From a virus: a stretch of DNA of 64,000 nt. Every line of letters starts with the position of its first letter. Within the stretch, counting starts at the first letter, position 1. This document shows positions 15,900 through 56,537 of this stretch, piece after piece. The position numbers were made by a program, and so were the translations under genes. The notes beneath the pieces are model-generated. The model was given only the letters and a program-made list of their open reading frames with translations. It had not been told where the DNA came from and ran no database searches. The stretch covers positions 1-64,000 of the IMG/VR virus record IMGVR_UViG_3300002141_000152; one strand, 5' to 3'.

Positions 15900-15933
15900 T
15901 AATTAAATGTTTTTATTATTTATCTCCTTAAAC

Positions 15934-19629: not shown

Positions 19630-19643
19630 AGTCTTAAATTTTT

Positions 19644-19654
19644 TTATTATTTAT
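19644..19654 (-). promoter_or_regulatory. Late-promoter-like motif ATAAATAATAA for the head operon
   Basis: Same motif recurs before more than 10 late genes; resembles T4 late TATAAATA. Confidence 0.7.
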
Positions 19655-19686: not shown

Positions 19687-20679
19687 TTAAATAGTGCTTA
19701 ATAAGGATAAGAATGTTTCTTTTTCTTCTTTATTTAATTTGGTTGGATCTGGTGTAATTATATCAAACTTAATGAGATAGTCTCCAAGTATGCCAGCGGC
19801 ATTGAGTATTCCTTCTGACGGTAATATGAACTTAAGATCAGTTAAGCTTCTCGGCTGATTTATTTCAGCATCATATTTTTTATTAAGGATAGTTTCAATA
19901 CGAATTTTTGAGTCTTTTGTAACAACTTTATAGAGCGGAATTTCAACACGATGTACAATTGTATTGTCAACTATTTCAATATTTTCTGGAACATCAAATC
20001 CAATCTCAACATAAAGATCTCCAAAAATTGGAACCTGTTCAATATCACCCCAAATATTTCGACGAGTATGCACATCTTCATTTCCAAGTTTGGTTACTCG
20101 AACTTTTGCAAAGTATTTAGAACCTTCTCGTTTGATTTGAAGATAAGTCTTACGTAAACTTAATTGAATACTAATCTCCTTCTCTTCATCTTCTCTAATA
20201 TAAGTAATAAGTTCACCGGCCTGTCCACTATATCGTATCTTTTTTCGAGTATATGACAATTCAATCTTCTTTCCAAGTATTGCATCAGATAGCGCACTTA
20301 TATCATTCACAGTTATGTCTAAATATGCTGTACTTGGCGGCGGAGTATGCTGTTTACCCTGAGATGCACGGCTTCGACTATTACTTGTTTCGTGAGATTG
20401 TCTAAACTGACTTGATGAAAACTGTCCGCCATATGATTTGACGAATTCATCATAGTTATAGGTAGTATGTGTACTCTGTTTTGGCAAATCATAGTGTTTT
20501 CTCTTTGTTTCATCACTGAGAACTTCGTATGCTTCTACAATAGATTTGAATTTATCCTCTGCTGCTTTATCCTCTGGATTCTTATCAGGGTGATGTTTTA
20601 AAGCCAGCGAACGATATGCTTTTTTAATTTCAGCCGATGTTGCTGTTTTTGGAATACCTAATATCGAATAATAATCCAT
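19687..20679 (-). CDS. dnaJ: DnaJ-family co-chaperone
   Basis: MDYYSILG...EIKKAYR.LA.KHHPDKN J-domain and DnaJ C-terminal GDLYV pattern. Confidence 0.85.
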
Positions 20680-20685
20680 TTGTCT

Positions 20686-20713
20686 AAACTTTTTGTCATC
20701 TATATTGTATAAA
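20686..20713 (+). promoter_or_regulatory. Putative promoter AAAC-N18-TATAAA of the glycan island
   Basis: Instance of the recurring bipartite motif. Confidence 0.55.
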
Positions 20714-20735
20714 AAAAAAAGAAAAAGTTCTACCT

Positions 20736-21356
20736 GTGTCAGTTTTAATTAAAAATTTACGAGAATTTATCGGTATACACAAAGGTGAAAATATTGTAGT
20801 ATGTGGCTGTGGCATGTCTCTACTTCCATTCAAGGCTGTTCACTCTAAATATATTACAATCGGCGTAAATGACGTGCCTGCACTATTTCAACCAACCTAT
20901 TTAGTCGTTACTGATCATCCAAACCGGTTTGGTGTAGATCGACGGCGTAAGCTAGTCAATGAATCAACCGCAAAATACCTTTTTACTTGTGCAAAAGGCT
21001 GGCGGCATAAAAATTTAGTAAATTTTGAGCTTGGTTCAAAGGCAATCAAACATCTTGATGATCCAAATCGAATCGACCATTTTGTTAATTCACCCTATAC
21101 TGCAATTGGGCTTGCATATAAGCTTGGTGCAAAGAATATTGGATTAATTGGCGTCGATTTTACAAATGGACACTTCTATAATCCAAAAGATGGAGCCCAT
21201 CCGGTAATTCAAATAAATTATCTTAAAAAAGTAAATTCTGCCTATTTTAGTTTAAAACTTGAACTTGAAAAACGTGGAGTTTCGTTATATAATCTTAGCC
21301 AGCAAAGTCTGGTTGACCTACCAAAAATAACTCTCGATCAATTCGATAAACTATGA
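20736..21356 (+). CDS. Maf/DUF115-like protein (putative nonulosonic acid transferase)
   Basis: [42 protein letters not shown] pattern. Confidence 0.7.
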
Positions 21357-22000
21357 AAATAATTATTCCAGCAAGACTTGGATCGAAGGGGTTACCTCTT
21401 AAAAATCGTACTCTTTTTGAACATACTGCTAAAACTATACCTGAAAACTTAATAAGTTCAGTTATTGTAACAACTGATGACCCAATAATTAGTGTGCAGG
21501 CAAAAGATTATGGATTTACTGTTATTCGTCGACCGGATGAACTGGCAGAAGATAATACTTCTGTTCGAGATGTTCTTATGCATGTGATTAATTCAATCCA
21601 TACTAAACCGGAAGAATTAATTGTGACGCTCTACCTAACCTATCCTCAGCGTACTTGGGAGGATATTGAATCAGCTATTAATTTCTTCCTAGAGTATTAT
21701 CACCGCGGATTAACTGATTCACTGCTGTGTAAAAAAGAAGCACCGGTACATCCATATCTTTGTCTTTGTGAACATGGAGTAGATGGAATATTTGGACGAC
21801 AACTTGTCACACATGACCTATATCGACGTCAAGATTATCCAAAGGTCTTTGAAATAAGTCATTTTATTTCAATATTTATCGCAGGTAAAACATATAATCT
21901 AAATAGTAATCTCTACTGCGATACTACGGTATTTTATCCAATATCTAACACAATTGATGTTGACACTCAAAAAGAACTAGACCAATTTAATGAACATTAA
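21353..22000 (+). CDS. neuA: Acylneuraminate cytidylyltransferase (CMP-nonulosonate synthetase)
   Basis: IIPARLGSKGLPLKN, VTTDD, RP.ELA.D, RRQD, IDVDT..D. Confidence 0.88.
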   Translation: MKIIIPARLGSKGLPLKNRTLFEHTAKTIPENLISSVIVTTDDPIISVQAKDYGFTVIRRPDELAEDNTSVRDVLMHVINSIHTKPEELIVTLYLTYPQRTWEDIESAINFFLEYYHRGLTDSLLCKKEAPVHPYLCLCEHGVDGIFGRQLVTHDLYRRQDYPKVFEISHFISIFIAGKTYNLNSNLYCDTTVFYPISNTIDVDTQKELDQFNEH

Positions 22001-23498
22001 TATTGCAACTGAAATTAGTGATACCTCGTTTCATTTTACTCGAACGAGCGTTTTTAGCTTTATTGAAACAAATAAGTGGTTTAACGGTACGATATATCTT
22101 ATATCTCATCAGAGTTTGCCGGTATCTGATCGAAACATTGAGATAATTCGATCGATTTATCCAAAGGTCGAAGTCCTCGATGTTACTGGAGATCCAGTCT
22201 TTGCAAAATATTTGAATGTTTCATCTCGTCAAAATACTAGTGCTGAACTCTATTCAGATTTGCGATTCGCTCTATTTAATTTAGAACTATCTAATATATT
22301 GTTCTTTTCAAGTTCAAGTATCTTTTTTAGTGCCGTAACCGACATTCTTTCAGCAAATACATTTACTGCCTCACGCGATCTAAATTTATTTTATTTAGCC
22401 AGACCTCTAACTATTTCAAAATTCTTAGCTTCCGGCGAGTTAAAGAAATATATTTTAGATCAAGCTGTTGATTCTACCGGCATCTCATATATGTCTTCAG
22501 AATTTATTGATTCAAAATTTCATCAGTTAACTGGGAAATTAGCCGGGGCGCAATTTATAACATTTGACACATTTGGCTCAACCGCACAAAAATATACTAG
22601 AATAAACCTGGTATGGTTACATAAAAATCATATTATTTCTCAGAAACTATTAAGGCCAAGTTCATTTACTAAAATCAGCCCACCGACTATTCCACCGAGT
22701 CGTAAAGATGAACCATATCGTAAAAAGCAACTGGATCTTAAAACGCAACTAGATCGTAAAGAGAAACCGCTGCCTCTTTCAACTCGTAGTGGAGTGCCGC
22801 TTGATGGAATCAGTATAATTATTCCTGCACATAAAGCGAGTGACTATATTGAAGCTTGTCTAGATTCTATGAGATGTTTAACAATACCGACTGAAATATT
22901 AGTTGGAGTCGATAATTGTGACTCTACTCTAATTAAATTAACTCAAATTCAAGAAAAATATCTAAATTTAAAAATATTTAGAACGAATAAGTCAGTTGGA
23001 CCCTATATTATTCGAAATAGTTTAGTCGAGCATATCAACTATTCAAATATCTTATTTTTTGATGCTGATGATATTATGAAAGACTCACTGTTTACCATGC
23101 TTTCAACACACAATAATGGATCTTCTCAAATAAGATTCAAATACACAAATTTTAAGAATAATGCCGATCCAAGTAGGTCAATTAATATAAATTCAAAGGT
23201 TGCACATGGAGTCTTCTTCATACCTGCAGCAACGTTTAAAAAAGTAGGTGGGTTTCAGCCTTGGATATGCGGTGCTGATACTGAATTTATTAAACGGAGT
23301 CTCGCGAATAACCTGCACACTATTGAAATTAATCACTGCCTATTCTATCGTCGAATCCATGCAGAGAGCCTAACTAACACTTCAAGGACAGGGTATGGCT
23401 CAGGTCTTAGAAAAGCAAATAGTGCATGGATTAAAGCAAATAAAAATTGGAAAATTCCAATTATTAAGAAAACAACTCCATTAGAAAAAATAAATTAA
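21990..23498 (+). CDS. Two-domain glycosyltransferase (degenerate GT-A N-terminus, GT2 C-terminus)
   Basis: C-terminal ISIIIPAH, GVDNC, GPYIIRN, FFDADD, GADTEF. Confidence 0.75.
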   Translation: MNINIATEISDTSFHFTRTSVFSFIETNKWFNGTIYLISHQSLPVSDRNIEIIRSIYPKVEVLDVTGDPVFAKYLNVSSRQNTSAELYSDLRFALFNLELSNILFFSSSSIFFSAVTDILSANTFTASRDLNLFYLARPLTISKFLASGELKKYILDQAVDSTGISYMSSEFIDSKFHQLTGKLAGAQFITFDTFGSTAQKYTRINLVWLHKNHIISQKLLRPSSFTKISPPTIPPSRKDEPYRKKQLDLKTQLDRKEKPLPLSTRSGVPLDGISIIIPAHKASDYIEACLDSMRCLTIPTEILVGVDNCDSTLIKLTQIQEKYLNLKIFRTNKSVGPYIIRNSLVEHINYSNILFFDADDIMKDSLFTMLSTHNNGSSQIRFKYTNFKNNADPSRSININSKVAHGVFFIPAATFKKVGGFQPWICGADTEFIKRSLANNLHTIEINHCLFYRRIHAESLTNTSRTGYGSGLRKANSAWIKANKNWKIPIIKKTTPLEKIN

Positions 23499-23511
23499 AA
23501 AAAATAAATTA

Positions 23512-24123
23512 ATGATGAATCATATTATTGTAACAAAATTGAATTTTAAAGATCGTGTGCTTCTTAATAAGTATTTGGAAATTACAAAGGCTGTCCTAAT
23601 TCCTGCATTAAAGTCACAAAAACAAAAGAATTTTACTTGGGTGTTACTTACGAATCGAGCAGATACTGAATACTTACAAAAGGAACTCGATTTTCCATTT
23701 GTTCCAATTTATGGAGTTGCTTCGCTATTACAATATTGTATTGAGCACAAGTGTCATATACAAACTCGACATGATTGTGATGATTGGATGTCACAGGAGT
23801 ATGTCGCTGCAATACAAAAGGAGTATGTAAAAAACATAACCATGCATAACACATTTATTATACATACTCAGCCAATTAGAGTCGCATATTCGACTGGTGC
23901 AGAATCAACATTGTCTAGGTATCATAATACTCGATGTTCCATGTTCCTAAGTCTATGTCAAAAAAATGTCATACATCATGTTCTTGTAAAACAGCATGGT
24001 CAAATGTATGAACTTGCAAATTCAGTAATTAATTTAGGTACAGGTTATAATAAATGGATTATTCATGGAAATAATTTATCAATTGTACGAAGTCGACTCA
24101 AAAAAATATTAAGAAATAAATGA
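23512..24123 (+). CDS. Putative glycosyltransferase (rhamnosyltransferase-like GT-A)
   Basis: IP.LKSQ..KNFTW, TRHDCDD, W.IHG.N.S. Confidence 0.6.
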   Translation: MMNHIIVTKLNFKDRVLLNKYLEITKAVLIPALKSQKQKNFTWVLLTNRADTEYLQKELDFPFVPIYGVASLLQYCIEHKCHIQTRHDCDDWMSQEYVAAIQKEYVKNITMHNTFIIHTQPIRVAYSTGAESTLSRYHNTRCSMFLSLCQKNVIHHVLVKQHGQMYELANSVINLGTGYNKWIIHGNNLSIVRSRLKKILRNK

Positions 24124-24857
24124 TGAATTCTAAAACAGTAGATATATGTGTAGTTACTTACAATAGGCTTGAATATCTTAAGCTGTGTGTATGGTCAATA
24201 TTGGCGTCGACTAAAATTCCATATCGACTGTTTGTAATATCTGATAATTCTACCGATGGTACAAATGAATGGCTACTTAAAATGAAAAAGTTAGGTAAAA
24301 TCGATGAAGTCATAATTAACTCTGAAAACCTAGGAAGTGCTGAATCATTCAATAAAATAATCAGAGAAACTTCTTCTGAATATTTTGTGATGGCGTGTGA
24401 TGATATTTGGTTTCATAGGGGATGGGATACTGCCTCACTTAGTATTTTAAATAAATTTAACGACTGTGGAATAGTTACTTTTTTTAACATTCCTCAATTA
24501 AAAAGTTACGATCAATCGACTAAGATCGATGAAACGACGCATAGGATACGGGCAACAGGGCTTGGCGCTAGTATAGTTAGTCGAAAATTGTACGATGCTG
24601 CCGGAAAGTTTAGTCTTCCGGCTAACCTAAAAATGGGATATTTCGCTGGGCCATTCTGTGGTAAAGCAAATAAAACAAAGTTGGTTCGAAGGAACCAGTA
24701 TGTTACTGTTCCTGAATATGCAGTTCAAATGGATCGATATAATCCTGGTGGAAAAGGCAGACCTCCGTTGCACCAAGAATATCTTTATTTAGACTATAAT
24801 TCAAGAAGAAGCATTGAAAAAAAGAAGCACATCGCGCATAACCATCAAAAAAAGTAA
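24120..24857 (+). CDS. GT2 glycosyltransferase
   Basis: VVTYNRLEY, DNSTDGT, NLG, ACDD. Confidence 0.85.
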   Translation: MMNSKTVDICVVTYNRLEYLKLCVWSILASTKIPYRLFVISDNSTDGTNEWLLKMKKLGKIDEVIINSENLGSAESFNKIIRETSSEYFVMACDDIWFHRGWDTASLSILNKFNDCGIVTFFNIPQLKSYDQSTKIDETTHRIRATGLGASIVSRKLYDAAGKFSLPANLKMGYFAGPFCGKANKTKLVRRNQYVTVPEYAVQMDRYNPGGKGRPPLHQEYLYLDYNSRRSIEKKKHIAHNHQKK

Positions 24858-24862
24858 GTAAA

Positions 24863-25585
24863 GTGAAAAAGGTAAATAATAAAAGTAAAATAAGCATAAT
24901 AATTTCAGCATTTGCGGCTGACTTGTATATTAAGGAATGCTTAGTCTCAATAGACAACCAGACATATTTTAAAGAGTTTAACGATTATGAAATATTAGTT
25001 GGAATAGATGGCTGTCCATCTACTTTAGCTGAAGTTAGTAAGTTTAAGGACACTATTCGAAATTTAAAAGTAATATGGTTTCCTACTAACTCTGGCCCAT
25101 ATCTAGTCTTCAACACCTTGATATCACTGAGTAAGTTTCAATCGATTTCTATATTTGGAGCAGATGACATAATGGAAGAAAACTTCATTGAACATAATTT
25201 AAGTCTATTAGAAAATAATTCTTGTGTTTTTGCTATGGGCTGTAACTTTACTCATCCATACAGAGAAGAAAAGCAAAAAACCTATAACCCAGACGGCGGT
25301 ATCATATTTAATAAATCTAATTTTGTATCAATTAATGGTTTTGAACAATGGCGATGTGGAGCAGACAGTGATCTTAAAATTAGATTTAAACTACTTGGCT
25401 TAACTTTAATAGATGCTGACCTCCCTACGTATCTACGTAGATTACATAAAAATAGTTTGACGGCCGGTGCCACCACATATGGGTTCGGCGGAGAGTATAG
25501 AACAAATGTACAAAAAATAGTTAGATCTAGGGATACTCCTAATATAGAAAAATACTGTGTTCTTGCTGATTATAAAATAATTTAA
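24863..25585 (+). CDS. GT2 glycosyltransferase (similar to the C-terminal domain of 21990..23498)
   Basis: SIIISAF, GIDGC, GPYLVFN, GADD, GADSD, RR.H..SLT. Confidence 0.8.
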   Translation: MKKVNNKSKISIIISAFAADLYIKECLVSIDNQTYFKEFNDYEILVGIDGCPSTLAEVSKFKDTIRNLKVIWFPTNSGPYLVFNTLISLSKFQSISIFGADDIMEENFIEHNLSLLENNSCVFAMGCNFTHPYREEKQKTYNPDGGIIFNKSNFVSINGFEQWRCGADSDLKIRFKLLGLTLIDADLPTYLRRLHKNSLTAGATTYGFGGEYRTNVQKIVRSRDTPNIEKYCVLADYKII

Positions 25586-25590
25586 CATAA

Positions 25591-26325
25591 ATGAAGTCTA
25601 AAATAAAGCCTAAAATAATATTTTTAACTTGTACTTGGAATAGACCAAATATCACTAAAATTTTTAGAGATAATCTACTAGATATACAAAATAAAACCCA
25701 AGATTTATTTGAGTTTATTAACATCGTAATCGATAGTGATAATAGCAATTATGACATATTTAAAGATCACAGCTCCTTTATTTATCATAATTATGACAAT
25801 TTACCATTATCAAATAAATGGAATTATGGTAGTTCTCTATGCAGCTCTATAGACTTTGATTATATTATAATAATTGGCTCAGATGATATATTAGATGAAT
25901 CAATATTAACTAAATATTATGAATATATGATCGCAGGATATGACTTTATCGGACTATTAGATCTGTATGTTTATAATATGCCTACTGATAAATTATATTA
26001 TTGGCCAGGATACTCTGAGCCTACTCGAAAAGGAGAAACTATTGGATTAGGTAGGTGTTTATCTAATCACCTTGTCAAAAAATTAAAATATAATCTATGG
26101 CTTGATAATAAAAATAGTGTCCTTGATTCTAGTATGAATAAAAAAATTAATAAGGTGTCGAATATTAAAAAGATCACATTCTATTCTAAAGATATTGGGA
26201 TCTGTTGCGATATTAAAAGTAAAACTAATATCACTTCATTTTCTAAACTAAGTAAAAAGATGGATGAGATTGATCAAACTACTGTTAAATATAAAAAATT
26301 AAAATCAATGATTTATGAAAACTGA
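25591..26325 (+). CDS. GT-A fold glycosyltransferase
   Basis: TWNR, N.PLSNKWN, GSDD motif. Confidence 0.65.
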   Translation: MKSKIKPKIIFLTCTWNRPNITKIFRDNLLDIQNKTQDLFEFINIVIDSDNSNYDIFKDHSSFIYHNYDNLPLSNKWNYGSSLCSSIDFDYIIIIGSDDILDESILTKYYEYMIAGYDFIGLLDLYVYNMPTDKLYYWPGYSEPTRKGETIGLGRCLSNHLVKKLKYNLWLDNKNSVLDSSMNKKINKVSNIKKITFYSKDIGICCDIKSKTNITSFSKLSKKMDEIDQTTVKYKKLKSMIYEN

Positions 26326-27079
26326 GATTAAAATAACCGTTGCCCTTCCCTTATACAATATGGGAAAAATAGTTGAGCTCGCTCTACATGGTCTAGCTAA
26401 TCAAGAGACGATATATCCTTGGGAGTTAATAATATGCGAGGAAAATTTAGGAGATTATTATGGTCTTAAAAAATTCATGTCTTGGGAAAAAGATTTAAAG
26501 TCTAATGGATGTGTTAAGATACATTACATTAAATTGAAAGAATGGGTCCCACTCGGACAAAAATGGAAAATTTTAGCGCAAGCGGCATCAGATACTACGT
26601 GTTTTATTCTTCAAGCTGGCGATTGTCTACCACATAGTAAAAGGCTTCAGGAGACATGTGATGCTTTTGAAAAGATTAACTGTAATTATTATGATGAACA
26701 GCAAGGATACTTTTATTCGTATGCATTGAATAAAACGATTATCTTTAATCCTACTGAACTCTATAAACACCCATGTCGCTTAAACATGGCATGGTCGACT
26801 CAATTGATAAAGACACTGCCAGATAATACTATGAAAAGAAACGTTGATGGTTTCCTATGTTCTGAGCTTTCTAAAAAAGAGAAAATAATTAAATTTAGAA
26901 ATAATAGTTTCCACAATGATGGAGTAGACACAGATGGATATAATAATATTTCACGTCGATCAAGATTTTTTATGGAAAAATCTCAAATATTTCAGTCAAC
27001 TAACATTGATTTAATTAATGCGATCCCAATCTTGAATAAATTTAAAGGCTTGGAACTTACTAAAAATAAAATAAAATAA
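26315..27079 (+). CDS. GT-A fold glycosyltransferase-like protein
   Basis: VALPLYN, LANQ, ELIICE, QAGD. Confidence 0.55.
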   Translation: MKTEIKITVALPLYNMGKIVELALHGLANQETIYPWELIICEENLGDYYGLKKFMSWEKDLKSNGCVKIHYIKLKEWVPLGQKWKILAQAASDTTCFILQAGDCLPHSKRLQETCDAFEKINCNYYDEQQGYFYSYALNKTIIFNPTELYKHPCRLNMAWSTQLIKTLPDNTMKRNVDGFLCSELSKKEKIIKFRNNSFHNDGVDTDGYNNISRRSRFFMEKSQIFQSTNIDLINAIPILNKFKGLELTKNKIK

Positions 27080-27081
27080 TA

Positions 27082-27864
27082 ATGGTGATAAAACAAGCAA
27101 GAGTTTCGTCAACCTTAGAGAAATATTTTGGGAACGAGTTTAGAAGTAAATGGAAATTAGAGAAGTATTATGATCCGAACTTGCCGGCTATATTCTTGGG
27201 TCTATATAAGAATGAAGATTTTAATGCTTTCCTTTCCCATAAATCATTTAGATTATTTGTTTTAGGCGGATCTGATATGACTCCTAAAAATCTTTTAAGA
27301 TTACGTGAAGTAATAAATGACGGCAGAACTTTTACTTGTAATCCACCTGGTGAAATATCTGAAACTCTATCTAAAAATAACATTCCTCATAAGCATGTGT
27401 ATATTCAGATTAAGGACTATTCCAAATTTAAACCTGTTCCATTGGGCGATAAGATATATGTCTATTTTGGTGCTTCTAGACAAGACTTATCTTACTATAA
27501 GTGGGAAGAAATAGTAGAGCCGCTAATCTCACATTATGGTAAAGATAAGATACTCTTCACAAAAAACCAAACATCAGACTGCTTAATTAACTCAATATAT
27601 CCGCAAGCCTTTGTTTATATTAAGCCAACGGTTGCTGGAGGAGCCACTACAATGTGGGAACTTGGCCATATGGGAATCAGAACATTAGGCAACGGTGACC
27701 TTCGTCCTCCTAATTTTACTCAATATTTTAATGTTGATCATTTAATCTCATTGATAACAAAAGAAGAAAAATACATCGGTAAAACTAGAGTCGATGTTGC
27801 AAATGATGTTAGAGAACTTTTTGAAACTTCTAAAAATTGGCTTAATTTAGATTTTTGGAAATAA
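27082..27864 (+). CDS. Uncharacterised glycan-island protein (paralog of 30701..31435), possibly GT-B-like
   Basis: Shares Q..VS...YF...W.L..Y.DPN.P..F.G, PLG.K..VY, ELG.MGIRT and W.N.DFW with 30701..31435. Confidence 0.6.
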   Translation: MVIKQARVSSTLEKYFGNEFRSKWKLEKYYDPNLPAIFLGLYKNEDFNAFLSHKSFRLFVLGGSDMTPKNLLRLREVINDGRTFTCNPPGEISETLSKNNIPHKHVYIQIKDYSKFKPVPLGDKIYVYFGASRQDLSYYKWEEIVEPLISHYGKDKILFTKNQTSDCLINSIYPQAFVYIKPTVAGGATTMWELGHMGIRTLGNGDLRPPNFTQYFNVDHLISLITKEEKYIGKTRVDVANDVRELFETSKNWLNLDFWK

Positions 27865-27877
27865 TAAAAATACAAAT

Positions 27878-28666
27878 ATGGATAATATACAAACTAATGA
27901 ATTAGAAATTGGAAAAAACGTAATTATTTCTCCAAGTGCAATCATTCGAGGACTAAATGGTCCTGCAAAAAGAATAAAAATAGGTGATAACACGTACATT
28001 GGAGACAATGTACAAATAATAGTCGACGACTTAGAGATAGGCGACTATTGTAAAATTCACCATCACTGCAATTTACATGGATATAAACCATTGCGGATTG
28101 GTCACAATGCATGGATTGGACAATATACTATAATTGATAGCATTGGAGGAACAACAATTGGTGATAATTGCGGAATCGGCGCGCATTCTCAGTTATGGTC
28201 TCATATTTTATATGGGGATGATCTTGAAGGATGCAACTATAACTCCAGAAAAGAGCTCATAATTGGTAAAGACTGCTGGTTTGTCGGCCACTGTATCGTT
28301 TCTCCAATTATAGCAAAAGATAAATCTATGGCACTAGTAGGTTCAGTAATAACAAAAGATATGGAAGAAAATCATATTTATGGCGGATCTCCAGCAAAGG
28401 ATCTTACTGGAAAAATTCCATCACAATTTAAAAAAATAACATTAGATGAAAAATATGAAAAAATGAAAAATCATTATATGAGTTTCGGATCTCCTGAAAA
28501 TATTAAAATTATAACAGAAATTTCAGAAATTCAAGATGAAAATATTTCATATTTTAATGTTAGCGATAGAACGTACACTAAAAGACTTTCTGAAAATGAA
28601 ATATCATTTATGAAATATTTGCTTCCAACTAAAGCTAAATTTACTCCACTTAAAAAAATCAAATAA
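27878..28666 (+). CDS. Hexapeptide-repeat (left-handed beta-helix) acyltransferase
   Basis: Repeated IG.N..I hexapeptides; GSVITKD, GGSPAK. Confidence 0.85.
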   Translation: MDNIQTNELEIGKNVIISPSAIIRGLNGPAKRIKIGDNTYIGDNVQIIVDDLEIGDYCKIHHHCNLHGYKPLRIGHNAWIGQYTIIDSIGGTTIGDNCGIGAHSQLWSHILYGDDLEGCNYNSRKELIIGKDCWFVGHCIVSPIIAKDKSMALVGSVITKDMEENHIYGGSPAKDLTGKIPSQFKKITLDEKYEKMKNHYMSFGSPENIKIITEISEIQDENISYFNVSDRTYTKRLSENEISFMKYLLPTKAKFTPLKKIK

Positions 28667-28668
28667 TT

Positions 28669-29304
28669 ATGCCAATTAAAAAACACAATCCCTACAAAAT
28701 AGTTCAAATGTTTGAGGAAGAACTTGCACTTTATACAGGTGCACAATACGCAGTATCTGTAGATAGCTGTACAAATGCACTATTTCTTTGCTGTACATAT
28801 TTAAAAGTTAAAGAAGCAATTATTCCATCAAAAACCTATTTGTCAGTGCCGATGAGTATCGCTCAAGCTGGAGGAGAAGTAATTTTTGACACACGACATA
28901 CAACAAATCATTGGACTGGAATTTATCAAATTAAACCATATCCAATATATGATTCAGCTAAAAGACTTACATCAAATATGTATATTCCAGGATCATTTAT
29001 GTGTCTTTCATTTCATATTAAAAAACAATTAGGAATAGGTAAAGGCGGAATGATACTCACTGATGATTTAGCTGCAGTTGACTGGTTTAAGCGTGCTCGA
29101 TATGAAGGCCGAAGCGAACGCTTCTATAAAGAAGATGATATTACATCGTTCGGCTGGAATATGTATATGACTCCACAGGAAGCTGCACAGGGACTGTGTC
29201 TATTACAAAATTATCCAGAACATGTCGCAGATCAGGGAGAAGTAAATGGATATCGAGACCTTACTGAATTTTCTATTTTTAAAAGCAATAGAACCATCAA
29301 GTAA
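28669..29304 (+). CDS. Short DegT/DnrJ/EryC1/StrS sugar aminotransferase
   Basis: FEEELA.YTG..YAVSVDSCTNAL, DSA, SFH.KK.L..GKGG, G.N.YM; only 211 aa. Confidence 0.8.
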   Translation: MPIKKHNPYKIVQMFEEELALYTGAQYAVSVDSCTNALFLCCTYLKVKEAIIPSKTYLSVPMSIAQAGGEVIFDTRHTTNHWTGIYQIKPYPIYDSAKRLTSNMYIPGSFMCLSFHIKKQLGIGKGGMILTDDLAAVDWFKRARYEGRSERFYKEDDITSFGWNMYMTPQEAAQGLCLLQNYPEHVADQGEVNGYRDLTEFSIFKSNRTIK

Positions 29305-29357
29305 TAAAACTTGAAGTATCACATATCGTATTAGATGTAGTCTAATAACGCTAAAGG

Positions 29358-30059
29358 ATGAAACTTGCAGTAATAATACCTACATATTGGAAAAATGACG
29401 GTAGCACTCGTGCACATCTTGAGAAGGCGCTTAACTCCGTTGCTGATCAGACACACAAAGACTATAAAGTCTTTTTAATTGGTGATGCATATTCAGATTC
29501 TACTGAATTTATTGAGGTATCTAAAATAATTGACTCTAATAAAATATATGTTGAAAATCTTGAAGTTCCAGGAGAAAGACATAAGTATTTCAGCTATCCA
29601 CTTTGGGTATGTGGTGGAGTTGCCGCATCAAATACTGGAATTCGCGCAGCAATTGCCGCCGGTTTTGATTACATATGTCATCTAGACCACGATGATTGGT
29701 ACTTTCCAAATCATCTTAAATTACTTTCTGAAACGATTGAGTTAACTGGAACTAACTTTGTAACCACTAGGTGTGGTGCTGACTGGCCAGCCATTGCTTC
29801 AACTGAATACTTAATGAAATATCGACCTCTACCTTGTAAAATATTTAAAGTCACAACCTGCGTGAACTATAAATATTTTAATATTGTTTTTAGAAACATG
29901 ATTGAAGAATGTGGCACTGTTTATCCAAGTGATGCTGACTTATGGGCTAGAATAAATGAACTTCTAATTAATAAAAATGAGTGGGGTTATCTAATTAATG
30001 AATCAACCTGCGGTCATGGACCTGAGCAAACAGTTATTCACAATCCAACTATAATCTAA
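29358..30059 (+). CDS. GT2 glycosyltransferase
   Basis: VIIPTY, S..DQT, HLDHDD, DADLW; own AAAC-N18-TATTAG motif at 29307. Confidence 0.8.
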   Translation: MKLAVIIPTYWKNDGSTRAHLEKALNSVADQTHKDYKVFLIGDAYSDSTEFIEVSKIIDSNKIYVENLEVPGERHKYFSYPLWVCGGVAASNTGIRAAIAAGFDYICHLDHDDWYFPNHLKLLSETIELTGTNFVTTRCGADWPAIASTEYLMKYRPLPCKIFKVTTCVNYKYFNIVFRNMIEECGTVYPSDADLWARINELLINKNEWGYLINESTCGHGPEQTVIHNPTII

Positions 30060-30064
30060 AAAAG

Positions 30065-30700
30065 ATGGCAAACGGAATCTATAAAATAACAGAAGACTTT
30101 GAAAAAGAGCTTGGTGACTATACAGGTTCACCCTATGTAATCACAGTCGATAATCAAAGCAATGCACTATTCTTAGCATTAATGTATGAAAAAGTTACAG
30201 GTCAGGAGATTACAATTCCTGCAAGAACATATCCATCGGTTCCCTGTGAAATTATACATGCTGGAGCAAAGGTAAACTTTAGACCGGTTGAAGGAAAAAC
30301 AATTAAGGGGGCATATCAATTAGAACCTACAAATGTCTGGGATTCAGCACTATGCTTTACGGCAGATATGTATAAACCTGGAACACATATGTGTATCTCT
30401 TTTACTGGACCATATAAACATTTTAAATTAAGTAAAGGCGGTGCAATCTTAACTGATAATCATGATGCATATTTATGGTTTAAAAGAGCTAGATATAGCG
30501 GACGTCGTGAGTGTTCATATCATGATGATTATTTTGATATGGTAGGTTGGAATTTTTATATGATGCCTGAATTAGCTGCTCGCGGACTACTATTAATGAA
30601 CCAATTCTATAATATTGATGGTACTAAAAAGACCAATGCTGATTTAGAATTGCCTTATCCAGATTTATCTAAATTTGAAATTTATCAAAAAAATAAATAG
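30065..30700 (+). CDS. Short DegT/DnrJ/EryC1/StrS sugar aminotransferase (second copy)
   Basis: FEKEL..YTG, SNALFL, DSA, SF...YK...SKGG, GWNFYM; 211 aa. Confidence 0.8.
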   Translation: MANGIYKITEDFEKELGDYTGSPYVITVDNQSNALFLALMYEKVTGQEITIPARTYPSVPCEIIHAGAKVNFRPVEGKTIKGAYQLEPTNVWDSALCFTADMYKPGTHMCISFTGPYKHFKLSKGGAILTDNHDAYLWFKRARYSGRRECSYHDDYFDMVGWNFYMMPELAARGLLLMNQFYNIDGTKKTNADLELPYPDLSKFEIYQKNK

Positions 30701-31435
30701 GTGATGAAAATATCACAAGTGTCTGTTTCACAGGCAGCGACATATTTCAAAACAGGATTAAAAGAACGCTGGGGATTATCTGACTACTCTGACCCCAATG
30801 CTCCATGCCTATTTTTTGGAGTTTCAGATCAAGTTGATTTAATTAATAAGCATAAAGGATATAAATTACTTTATTTTATAGATAAGTACGACACATATCC
30901 TGCCAACATATCTTCGCATAATGTCATATGTTTTGCTAATCCATATTCAAAGATACCTGCACATATTAAAACTAAACCTGGATGGTTTGAAACTAGGGTA
31001 AATACTATACTTACTCCAGCCCCATTAGGTAATAAAGTTTTTGTATATCTTAGAAATCCAACATATGCAAGTTTTCATGGTTCAAATCAAATACCAATAC
31101 TTCAAAAATTAATAAATTATGAAATACTTCCGCTGTCTCCAAGTCAGCCTATCCCATTCTCAGATGTAGTAGATAATTATTATCGAAAGTGTTTTGTATC
31201 TGTGAATTTTACAGAAACTGAAGGATTAACATCGGTTTGTGATTTGGGACTTATTGGAATCAGGACAATTATGAATACTAAAATAGATTTAGCAAGTCTA
31301 TTAAAATGTAATACGTTTGAAGAAGTACCGCAATTAATAAAAAATGAATCTGTAAAAATTGGAAGTATTCAACCGATCATTAATAATTATACCATAAATC
31401 CTCATTGGCAAAATATTGATTTTTGGCTAACTTAA
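30701..31435 (+). CDS. Uncharacterised glycan-island protein (paralog of 27082..27864)
   Basis: Shared N- and C-terminal motifs with 27082..27864. Confidence 0.6.
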   Translation: MMKISQVSVSQAATYFKTGLKERWGLSDYSDPNAPCLFFGVSDQVDLINKHKGYKLLYFIDKYDTYPANISSHNVICFANPYSKIPAHIKTKPGWFETRVNTILTPAPLGNKVFVYLRNPTYASFHGSNQIPILQKLINYEILPLSPSQPIPFSDVVDNYYRKCFVSVNFTETEGLTSVCDLGLIGIRTIMNTKIDLASLLKCNTFEEVPQLIKNESVKIGSIQPIINNYTINPHWQNIDFWLT

Positions 31436-31452
31436 TTATAATTAATAAAAAT

Positions 31453-32049
31453 ATGAAAAAAGCAATAATTGGCGCTGGCGGATTTGGCCGTGAAGTTTTT
31501 TGGAGTTTATCACCAATAGAAAGAATAGGCTCTGTATTTTTTGTAGATGATGTATATTGGAAAGACAACACAGATAATGTCTATCCGCTATCTAAATTTA
31601 ATCCAGAAGAATATGAAGTTATTATTGCAGTTGGCTCGCCAGAGGCTAGAGCGAAGATTGTCGAGGCGTTACCTAAGTCGACTCGATTTTTTACACATAT
31701 TCATAAAAGCGCACAGTTACTTGCTCCAGATATTGAGATAGGTGAGGGTAGTATTATTTGTGCAAATTCAATCATTACGACTAGTGTAAAAATAGGTAAA
31801 CACTGTCACCTAAACTTAGGTTCAACGATTGGCCATGATACTGTAATTGGAGACTTTTTTACAACTGCTCCAGGAGCAAAAATTTCAGGCAACTGTGAAA
31901 TCGGAGACCGTGTATATTTTGGTACGAACTCATCAGTCAAAGAAAAAATAGAAATTTGTAGTGATGTAACGATTGGTTTAAATTCAGGTGTTGTAAAAAA
32001 TATTTACTTCCGTGGAGTATATGTTGGGCTGCCTGCTAAAAAAATATAA
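31453..32049 (+). CDS. NeuD/PglD-family sugar acetyltransferase (probable start 31453)
   Basis: IIGAGGFGRE, FVDD, IAVG...R, IGHD hexapeptide repeats, G.PAK. Confidence 0.88.
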   Translation: MKKAIIGAGGFGREVFWSLSPIERIGSVFFVDDVYWKDNTDNVYPLSKFNPEEYEVIIAVGSPEARAKIVEALPKSTRFFTHIHKSAQLLAPDIEIGEGSIICANSIITTSVKIGKHCHLNLGSTIGHDTVIGDFFTTAPGAKISGNCEIGDRVYFGTNSSVKEKIEICSDVTIGLNSGVVKNIYFRGVYVGLPAKKI

Positions 32050-32051
32050 TA

Positions 32052-32885
32052 ATGAAACTTAGTGTATCATATATTGTATTTGATGGAGTTGAATTGCTAG
32101 AACACTCAATTCGTCAAATTAGAAAGCATGCTAACCACATCAGCGTAATTTATCAGAATTTTTCATGGTTTGGAAAGAAATTATCTGCTGCTGATCTGAT
32201 CATACTTAAATCTCTTGCACGTTCTGGACAAATTGATGAACTAATACTCTTTACTTCATTTGTGCCACTTCGAAACAAGACACAATCTTCAATTCTTACT
32301 GCAAAGAGTTATGAGCGAGCTAAGAGACAGGTCGGTCTTTCTGCGGCTCTACGTAATTCATGTACTCACTATTTATGTATGGATGTAGACGAATTCTATA
32401 CTTCTGATCAATTTGCAACCGCTAAAAATCTAATTAAGACTAGTGGATTTGAGTCAACTGCTGTTCGCTTAATTAATTATGTAAATATCCCAACTGTACA
32501 TCGTGGATATGATTCAACTCGTGTCCCATTTATCTGTAAAATTTCAAATGCGTCAAAGATGAGTACCTCATTTTTTGTAAAATGTGATCCTACTCGAGGA
32601 ATTTATCCAGTATCAGCTAAACGCCATGAATTTGCTCCAAATATTATTACTATGCATCACATGGAAACAGTACGCAAAGATATATTATTGAAGTATGATT
32701 CAACTACTCGAATGATATTCAACCGTGAAAGAACACACGAGCTAATAAATAGTATAAAATCAGTAAATGAAAAAAGTAAATCAGTCAACTTTAAAAAAAT
32801 AATATTTCCTGGGTTAAATCAAGTTACATTAACTACTTGTAAAAACATATTTGGAATACCTTACACTACATGGAAAAAACAATAA
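32052..32885 (+). CDS. GT-A-like protein
   Basis: YIVFDGVELL..SI, E..KR..GL, MDVDEFY. Confidence 0.55.
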   Translation: MKLSVSYIVFDGVELLEHSIRQIRKHANHISVIYQNFSWFGKKLSAADLIILKSLARSGQIDELILFTSFVPLRNKTQSSILTAKSYERAKRQVGLSAALRNSCTHYLCMDVDEFYTSDQFATAKNLIKTSGFESTAVRLINYVNIPTVHRGYDSTRVPFICKISNASKMSTSFFVKCDPTRGIYPVSAKRHEFAPNIITMHHMETVRKDILLKYDSTTRMIFNRERTHELINSIKSVNEKSKSVNFKKIIFPGLNQVTLTTCKNIFGIPYTTWKKQ

Positions 32886-33757
32886 TTATTGCAGAGGTAG
32901 GGCTGAATTATGCCTATGGAACAGATCAATCGAAGTTCATAGAAAACGCAAAAGCTCTAATTGATGTTGCCGCTGTTTCTGGTGCAGATTATGTAAAATT
33001 CCAAAAACGGACGCCCGAACTATGTATACCTCTTGCCGAACGAGAAAAAATAAAGTCTGTTCCGTGGAGAAAAGAGGAAACTACTTATTTTCAATATAAG
33101 TTAGATATTGAATTTACAAAGGATCAATATCGAGAGATTGACGATTACTGTACTTCAAAGGGAATAAAATGGTTTGCTTCAGTATGGGATAAGGGAGCAG
33201 TTGATTTTATGCGAGGTTTCGAAACAATACTGCCAAACGGAAAATGGGGCACCATGACTAAAATACCTTCAGCCTTAATTAATGATTTAGAATTAGTCGA
33301 CTACGCTAGAAGCAGTGCAGAGTTTTTGCTTATCTCTACTGGGATGAGTACTCAAAAAGAAATTGATTCTGCGATTCAAGTCGGCTTGCCAGATGTTGTA
33401 TTTCATACAAATTCAACATATCCTGCACCAATAGAAGAATTAAATTTAGAGTATATAACATATCTTAAACATATTTCTATAGAATTTGAAAATAAATTTA
33501 AAATAGGATATTCGTCTCATGAAAGATCAATTGTTACTTGTGCTTCATCTATTTTATATGGAGCAACTTGGGTAGAGCGACATATCACTCTAGATAGAAA
33601 TTTATGGGGAAGCGATCAGTTAAGTTCATCTGATCTTCCTGAATTTGCATTGCTAATTAAAAACATTAGAGAAATTGAATCATCTAGAGGTACGTACGGA
33701 TTACGAAAAGTATTAAAATCTGAATTAGCAAAGAGAAAAACACTTAGAGGAAAATGA
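32870..33757 (+). CDS. neuB: N-acetylneuraminate/nonulosonate synthase family (no C-terminal SAF domain)
   Basis: IIAEVGLN, AD.VKFQK, ISTGMST, H..STYP, GYSSHE, ERHITLD...GSD. Confidence 0.92.
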   Translation: MEKTIIIAEVGLNYAYGTDQSKFIENAKALIDVAAVSGADYVKFQKRTPELCIPLAEREKIKSVPWRKEETTYFQYKLDIEFTKDQYREIDDYCTSKGIKWFASVWDKGAVDFMRGFETILPNGKWGTMTKIPSALINDLELVDYARSSAEFLLISTGMSTQKEIDSAIQVGLPDVVFHTNSTYPAPIEELNLEYITYLKHISIEFENKFKIGYSSHERSIVTCASSILYGATWVERHITLDRNLWGSDQLSSSDLPEFALLIKNIREIESSRGTYGLRKVLKSELAKRKTLRGK

Positions 33758-34056
33758 AGATCACACCAACAAAAATCTTTCAATTTATTGAAGGTAACCT
33801 CAAGATGCTTGGAGATAAAATGCATCTTCTACCAAAACACGAACGTGAACAAGTTCTATATCGGTCAATTGTCTGTAAAGATGATTGTATGGAATATGGA
33901 TACTGCGCCTACTGTGGATGTTCTGTTCCAGGTAAAATGTATGTGAAAGAGTCCTGTAATAACGGTGACCGCTTTCCAAATCTTATGAGTGCTCCAGATT
34001 GGGAGAAATTTAAACTTGAAAAAAATATTGAAATCGAAGGTGATATATTACATTGA
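33754..34056 (+). CDS. Small Cys-rich hypothetical protein
   Basis: C...C.....C..CGC...C pattern; ATGA coupling to neuB. Confidence 0.6.
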   Translation: MKITPTKIFQFIEGNLKMLGDKMHLLPKHEREQVLYRSIVCKDDCMEYGYCAYCGCSVPGKMYVKESCNNGDRFPNLMSAPDWEKFKLEKNIEIEGDILH

Positions 34057-34345
34057 TATTGACGATACTATTTGTACATTAGGCAGGACACTGGACTACT
34101 CAACTGCAATACCAAATCTTACTGCAATTGCTAAGGTCAACCTACTATACTCAGAAGGTCACCGCATCGTTTTCTGGACTGCTCGGGGCACTGGTTCTGG
34201 TCTGGATTGGAGACAATTAACTGAAGATCAACTCCTCTCTTGGGGCGTCCAGTATGATGAATTAAAGTTTGGAAAGCCAATATATGATGTATTTATTGAT
34301 GATAAAAATATGAATGCTGAGGATTGGTTAAATGAAGAAGACTAG
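33989..34345 (+). CDS. Short HAD phosphatase (capsule-biosynthesis phosphatase-like); true start probably about 34028-34040
   Basis: DIDDTIC, FWTARG, GKP, FIDDK. Confidence 0.82.
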   Translation: MLQIGRNLNLKKILKSKVIYYIDIDDTICTLGRTLDYSTAIPNLTAIAKVNLLYSEGHRIVFWTARGTGSGLDWRQLTEDQLLSWGVQYDELKFGKPIYDVFIDDKNMNAEDWLNEED

Positions 34346-34943
34346 AGTTCTTGTTTTAGGAAACGATCCACAAATTAATCAAATAGCTTTTGATAAACTT
34401 GCACTAGACGTTATTACGATCGGTGTAAATCGAATTTGGTTAAAGCATATCCCAAACTATTTTTTCTTTAATGATTATGATATTGTTGAAGACTTGGATG
34501 CTGCTCCAGAAATAAGAGCTAACCTTATTCAAAAGTCTAGCATTTTTGCAAGTGACTGGCTGCGACCTAGTGCTAAAAAGAGAAATGCGAATATTCCAAG
34601 TTGGGTGAAAGTATTTGAGAGAGCAGATAAATTACAATTTCCAGATGCAGTGTCTACTGGACTTCAGATTTTTTCTAGAGAATACAGCCAACAGACCAAT
34701 TGTATCTTCTATATTGCTGGCGTTTCTTTGACTTGGCAAGAACCAAGTCACTTTTGGAAAACATCAGACCACCGAACACGAAATAAGCATGGAGGTGATT
34801 GGTATACTCCAAGATTCGATAAAATGATCAATAATTTTAGAAGATTAAAGGGCCTAGGCTATACGATGGTCTCAGTCAACCCAACCTCTGCCCTAAATAA
34901 ATTTATCCGATATGAGAATATTGGAAATCTCTACCGTAAGTAA
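34332..34943 (+). CDS. Second Maf/DUF115-like protein
   Basis: VLVLGNDP, TIGVNR, YFFFND, YIAGV, HFW; same architecture as 20736..21356. Confidence 0.55.
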   Translation: MKKTRVLVLGNDPQINQIAFDKLALDVITIGVNRIWLKHIPNYFFFNDYDIVEDLDAAPEIRANLIQKSSIFASDWLRPSAKKRNANIPSWVKVFERADKLQFPDAVSTGLQIFSREYSQQTNCIFYIAGVSLTWQEPSHFWKTSDHRTRNKHGGDWYTPRFDKMINNFRRLKGLGYTMVSVNPTSALNKFIRYENIGNLYRK

Positions 34944-40826: not shown

Positions 40827-40881
40827 TTGTTATATTTCTTTTTATTATTTATTGTGATTAAAAAAAGTATGCAAGTATTAC

Positions 40882-48164: not shown

Positions 48165-48218
48165 GGTTGTATGTTTACAATATCTTTTATTGATAAATAA
48201 TAAAAAGTTTTAATCTAG

Positions 48219-56511: not shown

Positions 56512-56537
56512 TAAATAATAAAAATATTAGACAAATC

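Follow-up and report, generated by a model that had tools for sequence, protein, structure and literature searches.

The first 64 kb of the IMG/VR virus record IMGVR_UViG_3300002141_000152 (this whole stretch is called the window below) carries a block of 20 open reading frames (ORFs), all on the + strand, between phage head genes and baseplate genes (20736-34943). The full record is 108,970 bp long and has a CheckV completeness of 43%, from which a genome size of ~250 kb is estimated. Comparison with other viral contigs shows that this locus is a conserved, internally hypervariable glycosylation island of a clade of uncultured T4-like jumbo phages. Its genes code for the synthesis (NeuB) and activation (NeuA) of a nonulosonic acid (NulO), likely for its transfer by two proteins with a GT42 fold, and for amino-sugar tailoring enzymes and many glycosyltransferases (GTs). 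This is the kind of system that an initial annotation, made from the letters alone, had proposed. That annotation is corrected here in three respects: the pathway is coupled to a HAD phosphatase, the proteins at the two ends are minimal CstII-like domains, and a promoter placed before the island is not supported. As a whole explanation, we propose that the island builds an oligosaccharide of NulO and amino sugars on a cytoplasmic acceptor, with virion structural proteins as the favoured acceptor, and we give this proposal an even chance of being right.

The island is a tightly packed and co-oriented block, as had been described, and the ORF listing gives 20 genes where 19 had been counted. We number them o01 to o20. 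Most of them overlap or lie at most 13 nucleotides (nt) apart, and the widest gap inside the island is 53 nt (29304/29358). On the left, the flanking genes lie on the − strand and comprise a DnaJ-domain gene, the prohead protease and the major head protein. On the right, a gp5-like baseplate hub gene is followed by more baseplate and tail genes, which bears out the location between head and baseplate functions. The gap-free junction reported at 34943/34944 is real in the ORF listing, where the island end and the hub gene are convergent with zero spacer.

Relatives were collected by locus searches of IMG/VR, in which the NeuB query and the o20-family query each gave 59 loci (~100 loci together). 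The island occupies the same slot in >25 independent viral contigs from different samples. Throughout the close clade, the protease/DnaJ genes stand on one side of the block and the baseplate hub on the other, and the hub gene lies downstream of o20 in 41 of 44 loci. The frame is fixed, with o01 and NeuA on the left and o16, NeuB, o18, HAD and o20 on the right, while the middle is variable. Cassettes in the middle are exchanged between phages. The genes o06, o08 and o09 are 79-90% identical in two relatives (L160 and L163) whose frame genes are 50-62% identical; there o06 shares 79-82% and o08 88-89% identity. Likewise, o07 is 87% identical in a further relative (L191), o11 and o13 are 96% and 92% identical in other contigs, and o13 has 75% nucleotide identity to gene 99 of Flavobacterium phage immuto. 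The middle genes of relatives include FkbM and S-adenosylmethionine (SAM) methyltransferases, GT2, STELLO-like, DUF5672 and GT10-like proteins, a third DUF115-like protein, an epimerase/dehydratase of the short-chain dehydrogenase/reductase (SDR) family and a GFO/IDH/MocA oxidoreductase. Insertions were also seen in the islands of relatives (L004:10917-11882 and L029:7122-8522 / L164:5282-7390): a gene with DUF7487 and DUF559 (endonuclease-like) domains between NeuB and o18, and, in another phage, a lipoprotein-like ORF and a histidine-kinase-type ATPase gene.

The ratio of nonsynonymous to synonymous substitution rates (dN/dS) is 0.05-0.27 in the 18 of the 20 genes that could be tested, which indicates purifying selection. 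Together with the catalytic residues kept in NeuB, NeuA, HAD, PglD and both short aminotransferases, these values make it unlikely that the enzymes are catalytically dead, an outcome that the initial annotation had named as fatal to its proposal. The families of NeuB, NeuA, PglD and GT2 are typically bacterial and the record is a metagenomic contig, as would be expected of an assembly chimera, or of bacterial capsule or flagellin-glycosylation DNA that is passively carried without a phage function. However, the same phage genes flank the block in contig after contig, and this conserved slot rules out a chimera. At 0.31-0.35, the island has the same GC content as the flanking DNA, the closest cellular NeuB is at best 48% identical to o17, 18 genes are under purifying selection, and the families of o16, o18 and o20 are nearly all viral or unannotated. 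We regard this alternative as improbable in the extreme, and the earlier view that the genes are phage-encoded holds.

The genes of the nonulosonate core and of the two island ends are as follows.

20736-21356, + strand: o01, 206 amino acids (aa), minimal DUF115/Maf-like protein and candidate nonulosonate transferase of a CstII-like (GT42) fold; it opens the frame on the left.
21353-22000, + strand: o02, 215 aa, NeuA-type CMP-nonulosonate synthetase (cytidylyltransferase); PF02348, E 7.7e-10.
32870-33757, + strand: o17, 295 aa, NeuB-family nonulosonate (phosphate) synthase without the C-terminal SAF domain; PF03102, E 9.5e-52.
33754-34056, + strand: o18, 100 aa, Cys-rich protein between the NeuB and HAD genes, present in most relatives.
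33989-34345, + strand: o19, up to 118 aa, predicted capless mini-HAD sugar-phosphate phosphatase; HAD motifs I-IV.
34332-34943, + strand: o20, 203 aa, candidate nonulosonate transferase of a CstII-like (GT42) fold; it closes the frame on the right and abuts the baseplate-hub gene.

The NeuB, NeuA, HAD phosphatase and Cys-rich protein named in the initial annotation were all recovered. The NeuB domain of o17 scores 176.3 bits against a gathering cut-off of 22.1. Its match to TIGR03569 covers model positions 1-276 and ends at position 276 of 329, with 155 bits against a cut-off of 399.65, and its match to the PseI equivalog reaches 117 bits against a cut-off of 340. In 19 phage copies H217 and H238 (metal-binding), K43, K131, E9, E236, D249 and a Ser position are invariant, and in an alignment with PseI the conserved residues fall on its SDH and EKH motifs. 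Many cellular genomes and metagenome-assembled genomes (MAGs; L062-L141) likewise contain NeuB proteins without the SAF domain (~275-310 aa, motif [DN]YVKFQKR), among them those of Dyadobacter, Hirschia, Nitrosomonas, Caulobacter and Pelagibacteraceae, and there NeuA is often directly downstream. One Pacearchaeota MAG contig (L062), which may be viral, has NeuA, NeuB, HAD and an o01-like gene. The PF02348 match of o02 scores 39.4 bits against a cut-off of 22.6. This protein contains the N-terminal IPARxGSKG motif (the PxRxGSKG loop), and the PseF model TIGR03584 aligns over its residues 4-207 with a score under the equivalog cut-off. The Cys-rich o18 matches only viral hypothetical-protein clusters in the Atlas and has a dN/dS of 0.05-0.07.

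All four HAD motifs are visible in the o19 translation (I DxDxT, II T, III K, IV DD). It matches PDB entries 9iqw (134 aa, E 1.1e-10) and 1xpj (E 0.0046), and its match to TIGR01689 is weak (19.7 bits against a cut-off of 162). Judging from the PDB entry series, 9iqw is presumably the HY126 enzyme. A small HAD assigned to the family of o19 removes the terminal phosphate from a sugar bisphosphate in RB69, DLP3 and HY126 (PMC13326640); gp81 of DLP3 matches 1xpj, as o19 does. Many distant phages that do not have the rest of the island have NeuB and HAD genes that are adjacent or overlapping, and NeuA is kept there too. The mechanical ORF list likely has wrong starts for two island genes, o15 (31423-31455) and o19 (33989-34056). 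The GTG start of o19 at 33989 overlaps o18 by 68 nt and the true start may be later, near 34040, while o15 probably starts at ATG 31453 (MKKAIIGAGG...).

A synthase, a phosphatase and a cytidylyltransferase together form the scheme by which Kdo, ketodeoxynononic acid (Kdn) in Bacteroides and N-acetylneuraminic acid (Neu5Ac) in animals are made. By analogy, NeuB, HAD and NeuA suggest a three-enzyme route through a 9-phosphate intermediate. The initial annotation drew no link between HAD and NeuB, and the adjacency of the two genes is added by the present analysis. NeuB would condense phosphoenolpyruvate (PEP) with a host hexose 6-phosphate, most simply mannose 6-phosphate or N-acetylmannosamine 6-phosphate, to give NulO 9-phosphate. 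The mini-HAD would then take off the 9-phosphate, and NeuA would activate the free NulO to CMP-nonulosonate. This route would draw on host central metabolites alone, and it would account for the 'missing' epimerase. The remark that no dehydratase or epimerase is visible extends to the whole record, in which a search of the 109 kb found no SDR dehydratase/epimerase, no PseB/PglF-type enzyme and no NeuC-type epimerase; in relatives an SDR gene lies within the island or elsewhere in the genome, ~30 kb away. The 'near-complete pathway' of the initial annotation can be kept for the nonulosonate branch only if that branch runs via a phosphorylated intermediate. It cannot be kept for the amino-sugar branch, which has no keto-sugar-forming enzyme in the 109 kb.

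The proteins at the two ends, o01 and o20, share a sialyltransferase/DUF115-like fold, which is seen for o20 by structural modelling and for o01 by a profile link. The o20 family has 146 homolog clusters of ~200 aa that are unannotated and without a Pfam match, and o20 itself has no Pfam match even at E 10. Its AlphaFold2 model has a predicted local distance difference test (pLDDT) score of 95, and the best Foldseek matches are CstII and CstI with a probability of 1.0. Against CstII the VIA Z score is 13.2 over 194 of 203 residues with a root-mean-square deviation of 3.8, and the next unrelated fold class has Z ≤10. Profile-profile comparison aligns o01 with the o20 family over 186 columns (91.9%, E 7e-7). 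The match of o01 to PF01973 (MptE-like) is sub-threshold and spans 22 residues only (E 0.0029, 17.9 bits against 34.6). In relatives o01 adjoins NeuA, and its dN/dS is 0.08-0.12. NeuB is found upstream of o20 in all 29 loci with enough sequence, as are HAD and o18, and this co-occurrence ties the CstII-fold protein to the NulO genes. The alignments contain a nearly invariant His (H140 in o20, H146 in o01) as well as Tyr and Arg columns, which may or may not correspond to the catalytic His base and the phosphate-binding Tyr residues of GT42 enzymes. At 203-206 aa the two proteins are shorter than CstII (~290 aa), the o20-CstII match ends near residue 231 of the CstII chain, and the C-terminal membrane-association segment of CstII is absent from them. 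The description of both ends as Maf/DUF115-like is therefore right as to the fold and wrong as to the architecture, since Maf proteins are multi-domain proteins of ~600 aa with PF01973 above cut-off and the island proteins are minimal CstII-like domains of ~205 aa. In the proposed pathway, o01 and o20 would transfer the sugar from CMP-nonulosonate.

Two three-gene modules in the middle of the island are related to amino sugars.

27082-27864, + strand: o09, 260 aa, compact two-domain GT-B protein (GT4-like), first gene of module A; 23 homologs, without a Pfam match.
27878-28666, + strand: o10, 262 aa, left-handed beta-helix (hexapeptide) acyltransferase, WcaF-like, module A; PF00132, E 8.8e-11; NF007797, E 1.2e-17.
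28669-29304, + strand: o11, 211 aa, mini-DegT aminotransferase, module A; PF01041, E 1.5e-21, 77.5 bits.
30065-30700, + strand: o13, 211 aa, mini-DegT aminotransferase, module B; PF01041, E 2.1e-15, 57.3 bits.
30701-31435, + strand: o14, 244 aa, paralog of o09 (26% identity, E 3e-17), compact GT-B protein, module B.
31423-32049, + strand: o15, 208 aa, NeuD/PglD-family sugar N-acetyltransferase, module B; TIGR03570, 175.7 bits against a cut-off of 160.8.

Module A (o09, o10, o11) and module B (o13, o14, o15) each contain a GT-B protein, an acyltransferase and a mini-DegT, and similar triads occur together in relatives. The two hexapeptide acyltransferases and the two DegT-type aminotransferases of the initial annotation stand, with o15 above the NeuD/PglD cut-off and containing the domains PglD_N (PF17836) and hexapeptide (PF00132). 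The aminotransferases are 43% identical to each other. The SF..K lysine of o11 aligns with the catalytic K186 of perosamine synthetase, and this pyridoxal phosphate (PLP) lysine is kept in o13 too. Fold-type I DegT proteins have ~370 aa, and ~45 central residues and the whole C-terminal domain are absent from o11 and o13. A search of 1.84 billion representatives gave 1874 mini-DegT matches, 147 of them at E ≤1e-30 and most with 200-220 aa. The short form prevails across this large family, and the mini-DegT proteins form a real family; dN/dS is 0.07-0.09 for o11 and 0.06 for o13. Some mini-DegT proteins are fused (P0288, P0294, P0295 and P0301) to GNAT acetyltransferases, to an HNH endonuclease, or to a GT-B and an FkbM methyltransferase. 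In this last fusion, of 866 aa, the DegT part is 71% identical to o13. No BLAST match to o09, o10 or o14 was found among the fusion partners. The GNAT and GT-B fusions support the order amination, N-acylation, transfer. The two modules would add N-acyl amino sugars that start from a keto-sugar nucleotide, and this precursor would be supplied by the host or by the unsequenced part of the genome.

The initial annotation had listed o09 and o14 as two uncharacterised paralogs; they are indeed related, and we now read them as compact GT-B enzymes. For o09 the assignment is by fold only, since it has no Pfam or PDB sequence match. Its AF2 model (pLDDT 88.6) superimposes on GT4 enzymes with VIA Z 16.4-16.8 over 244-247 of 260 residues, and on the phage DNA GTs HY126 (9iqz), T4 beta-GT and T4 alpha-GT with Z 14.4, 12.2 and 12.0. 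A reading of o09 and o14 as PseG/NeuC-type hydrolases that complete a route to pseudaminic or legionaminic acid (Pse/Leg) was considered and not adopted. GT4 transferases match with Z 14-16.4 against 10.8 for NeuC, which is rank 50 of the o09 structure matches, and PseG is not among the best 50 listed. We keep the hydrolase reading as a minority possibility.

The remaining GT-like genes are the following.

21990-23498, + strand: o03, 502 aa, C-terminal GT2 (GT-A) domain; PF00535 at residues 275-370, E 1.2e-9.
23512-24123, + strand: o04, 203 aa, putative rhamnosyltransferase-like GT; PF11316, 24.2 bits against a cut-off of 23.
24120-24857, + strand: o05, 245 aa, GT2 glycosyltransferase; PF00535, E 1.3e-17.
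24863-25585, + strand: o06, 240 aa, GT2 glycosyltransferase; PF00535, E 4.3e-11; in the recently exchanged cassette o06-o08-o09.
25591-26325, + strand: o07, 244 aa, probable GT-A (tentative); PF00535 sub-threshold, E 0.018, profile positions 5-114.
26315-27079, + strand: o08, 254 aa, probable GT-A (tentative); PF00535 sub-threshold, E 0.014, profile positions 1-108.
29358-30059, + strand: o12, 233 aa, GT2 glycosyltransferase; PF00535, E 2.9e-10.
32052-32885, + strand: o16, 277 aa, conserved frame gene, possibly GT-A; invariant D-x-D-E motif.

Where about seven GT-A/GT2 proteins had been proposed, four PF00535 proteins and one PF11316 protein are above cut-off, and two more GT2 matches (o07 and o08) are only below threshold. 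The N-terminal 270 aa of o03 have no Pfam match, and its C-terminal part and o06 are paralogs (33% identity, E 1.5e-23). The homologs of o16 number at least 149, are ~275 aa long and lack any Pfam match, and D111, D113 and E114 are invariant among them; the Atlas neighbours of o16 are 75% GT17 and 13% GT2, which serves as a lead only. Up to 12 of the 20 island proteins are GT-like. Five to eight GT-A enzymes would complete the oligosaccharide.

The last step would be a strain-variable acidic glycan coat on virion structural proteins, a target that we put at, or a shade below, an even chance. No membrane helix was found among the 20 island proteins, and 22 islands (279 ORFs) contain no flippase, polymerase, ABC exporter or priming transferase. 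A hydrophobic helix is present in 3 of the 279 ORFs, none of them a transporter, and all products of the island are predicted to be soluble. The absence of membrane and export genes implies that the system acts on a cytoplasmic target or on host intermediates. The fixed place in the morphogenesis region and the many, varied transferases favour the virion. So would the analogy with flagellin islands, giant-virus clusters and glycosylated mycobacteriophages; in these mycobacteriophages, GT genes reportedly lie near structural genes.

Several points weigh against this proposal, and one of them concerns expression. The word ATAAATAATAAAA, which is probably the late-type promoter of this phage, occurs with at most one mismatch in 17 copies in the window against 1.8 expected. 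Nine copies are exact, and examples are 15911-15923 (−), 19642-19654 (−), 40840-40852 (−), 48193-48205 (+) and 56511-56523 (+). Among the genes that it precedes, at ~10-20 nt from the start codon, are those of the prohead protease, the head operon and the baseplate. The region before the island is different.

20680-20735, no strand: divergent intergenic region between the DnaJ-domain gene (19687-20679, − strand) and o01; A-rich, without a promoter-like word.

As ATAAATAATAAAA is absent from 20680-20735, the phage-type promoter claimed at 20686 is not supported, and neither is late co-expression with the virion genes. The family profiles of o20 and o01 found no solved sialyltransferase in the PDB. 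NeuB could not be assigned a substrate type from NCBIfam or PDB similarity, and its scores fall well short of the equivalog cut-offs for NeuB and PseI. Two relatives have an SDR (dehydratase/epimerase) gene beside NeuB, which fits Pse/Leg-type rather than Kdn/Neu5Ac sugars, and going by this gene order the precursor may be of Pse/Leg type in some members. For the fold of o16 there was no PDB match, and hhalign against the island GT2 proteins was negative. The clade has an enzyme of the hydroxymethyl-dCMP (hmdCMP) synthase type and no recognisable GT outside the island. The acceptor on the virion stays a candidate, and the favoured one. A collagen-like fibre gene (3-881, − strand) runs off the contig start and has at least 80 Gly-X-Y triplets (GST, GAQ, GTQ, GPQ); a 1-mismatch ATAAATAATAAAA copy lies just upstream of it. 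As a conserved acceptor this fibre is unsupported, with two weak matches in five island-bearing relatives.

DNA could be the acceptor instead, if the island or a part of it glycosylates 5-hydroxymethylcytosine as in T-even phages, in RB69/DLP3 and in the metaviromic systems of Pyle et al. In that case, type IV restriction and DNA glycosylases would be what drives the shuffling of cassettes. A thymidylate synthase (TS) homolog at 1221-2084 (+) is nearest to CMP/dCMP hydroxymethylases (5e-24 and 4e-21, against 1e-10 for TS) and shows the L143D, D169 and N177D signature (criteria from PMC13326640), which predicts that its product makes 5-hydroxymethyl-dCMP. The homolog is present in five of five long relatives at 48-65% identity, and a dCMP/cytidine deaminase gene (2283-2702, +) follows it. 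In six records, one of them 81% complete, the recognisable GT genes are all in islands, with no GT2 or GT1/GT4 Pfam match and no T4 beta-GT match outside them. The HAD protein o19 belongs to a family used by the arabinosyl-DNA pathway, the match of o09 to 9iqz concerns a HY126 GT whose arabinosyl-DNA role we infer from the account in PMC13326640, and action on DNA is established for phage enzymes of both the GT-A and the GT-B kind (10.1101/2023.12.21.572611). The missing ATAAATAATAAAA word before the island also suits a DNA target. Against this, up to 12 transferase-like proteins contrast with the 1-3 sugars known on DNA (PMC13326640), and the conserved core is a pathway for an acidic nine-carbon sugar with sialyltransferase-fold enzymes, whose negative charge would disfavour packaged DNA. 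The TS homolog is 19 kb away from the island, whereas it lies inside the cluster in DLP3 and RB69 (PMC13326640), and the 20 genes include no RB69-type sugar-1-phosphate kinase or nucleotidyltransferase. A DNA GT could also be concealed in the 57% of the genome that is unsequenced or among the many unannotated ORFs. A dCTPase (PF08761) was not found in the 109 kb record. We consider a DNA target unlikely, if to be taken seriously. A combined version, in which 5-hydroxymethylcytosine DNA bears an oligosaccharide capped with NulO and cassette exchange creates 'DNA serotypes' that evade modification-dependent nucleases, is a long shot; if true, it would be the first acidic nine-carbon sugar on DNA. 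An Fpg/Nei-type DNA glycosylase gene (6039-6821, +) with PF01149, H2TH and Neil1 DNA-binding domains is unusual near a base-modification gene.

The host envelope is a further conceivable target, and we rate it as somewhat less probable than DNA. Here the soluble enzymes would decorate lipid-linked or surface glycans of the host (lipopolysaccharide (LPS), capsule or O-glycoproteins), which would block superinfection or keep progeny from sticking to debris. Many bacterial O-antigen GT2/GT4 enzymes and CstII are peripheral proteins without a transmembrane helix, and this counts for the envelope. The hypervariability of the island is like that of O-antigen loci, and LPS/capsule-type genes including neuA in environmental lytic phages have been read in this way (PMC5332604). 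However, the 22 islands have no ligase in addition to their want of flippase, polymerase, ABC exporter and priming transferase, the membrane-association segment of CstII is missing from o01 and o20, and the position within the morphogenesis region is strictly conserved. For the island on its own, export to the host surface is disfavoured, and virion proteins are kept as the favoured target.

Several known systems resemble the island in part. The flagellin islands of Campylobacter, Helicobacter, Aeromonas and Caulobacter combine Pse/Leg genes with Maf or FlmG transferases. The phage island shares with them a cytoplasmic O-glycosylation logic, a NeuB-type synthase, a CMP-synthetase, DegT, PglD/NeuD and DUF115/GT42-fold transferases, as well as a strain-variable gene content and the lack of export genes. 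It differs in being a phage (lytic-type) locus with many extra GT-A enzymes, in its NeuB, which is SAF-less and HAD-coupled, and in its transferases, which are bare domains of ~205 aa without the flagellin-binding domains of Maf; PseB/LegB and PseG/LegG/NeuC were not found as recognisable families in this record. The 9-phosphate route is formed in Bacteroides by Kdn-9-phosphate synthase, a phosphatase and CMP-Kdn synthetase, and in animals by NANS, NANP and CMAS. The island is like it in having a NeuB-family synthase, a HAD and a cytidylyltransferase and would need only host hexose 6-phosphate, PEP and cytidine triphosphate (CTP). Unlike it, the phage HAD is capless and 1xpj/TIGR01689-like, not KdsC-like C0, and the synthase is SAF-less. 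The fibril glycan clusters of Mimivirus and Megavirus contain a sugar aminotransferase, an N-acetyltransferase and GTs and are thought to coat the particle. Both they and the island encode a set of nucleotide-sugar tailoring enzymes and GTs that is independent of the host and varies between related viruses. No nonulosonate pathway is known in these eukaryote-infecting giant viruses, whereas the island belongs to a tailed phage and has a NulO core with sialyltransferase-fold enzymes. In mycobacteriophages, as Freeman and colleagues are said to have found in 2023, cytoplasmic phage GTs modify capsid and tail proteins with one or two enzymes and host sugar nucleotides. The present locus has 20 genes with its own sugar synthesis, and virion glycosylation is here a proposal from genes.

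The systems of RB69, DLP3 and HY126 (PMC13326640) and of Pyle et al. (10.1101/2023.12.21.572611) are similar in being T4-like, in having a small HAD, GT-B and GT-A enzymes and a TS homolog in the genome, and in their diversifying content. Clusters of the RB69/DLP3 type hold the TS homolog, a kinase and a UDP-sugar pyrophosphorylase inside and add 1-3 neutral sugars, whereas the island is built around NulO, encodes as many as 12 transferases and is 19 kb away from the TS gene. It thus shares the small HAD and GT-B features of that type and lacks the set of TS, kinase and pyrophosphorylase. Capsule and O-antigen loci (Wzx/Wzy or ABC) are recognised by a membrane exporter and priming, neither of which is seen in the island. 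The sugar island of Flavobacterium phage vB_FspM_immuto (MW353175, genes 90-102) has a 214-aa mini-DegT gene followed by a PglD-like gene ('pilin glycosylation protein'), GTs and an epimerase. Unlike the present island, it has no annotated NeuB, NeuA, HAD or GT42-like frame and does not lie between head and baseplate genes. This island of a cultured phage, within our locus L001 (MW353175, 41735-72357), has 13 genes, with a full-length WecE-like aminotransferase in addition to the mini-DegT. Immuto is reported to have 7-deazaguanine DNA modifications (bioRxiv 10.1101/2023.04.13.536721).

What appears to be new, on the evidence of the genes, is a tailed-phage locus that would make and transfer its own sialic-acid-like sugar. 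Virus-encoded glycosylation is established for giant viruses, a few mycobacteriophages and DNA bases. No account of a nonulosonate pathway that a phage encodes together with transferases of its own turned up in a literature search, and absence there is no proof. A neuA gene is among the LPS-like genes of one marine viral genome (PMC5332604), and a large aquatic phage lineage has core GTs (PMC12619734). Also new here are the CstII fold of o20 and its link to NeuB, the GT-B assignment of o09 and o14, the mini-DegT family, the absence of export genes and the purifying selection on 18 genes. The system is widespread, as is evident from the 146 clusters of the o20 family and the ~100 IMG/VR loci. 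The fixed slot in the morphogenesis region and the exchange of cassettes point to a strain-specific, selectable glycan. A glycan on the virions would matter for how the phages adsorb, how stable they are in the environment and how they are recognised; one on DNA would amount to a new anti-restriction chemistry. The island also offers tractable enzyme families: a ~200-aa sialyltransferase-fold protein without sequence similarity to known ones, a 260-aa minimal GT-B, a ~205-aa minimal DegT, and a SAF-less NeuB coupled to a ~100-aa HAD.

Other promoter candidates were rejected. Two 1-mismatch copies of ATAAATAATAAAA in the island lie within coding sequence and too near to start codons, and the T4 late promoter TATAAATA is not enriched, with 6 matches against 10.6 expected. 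A generic scan for sigma-70 promoters and terminators gave uninformative output. The DnaJ-like protein encoded at 19687-20679 (−) has 330 aa and an N-terminal J-domain, and the position of its gene between the prohead protease and the island is kept in relatives.

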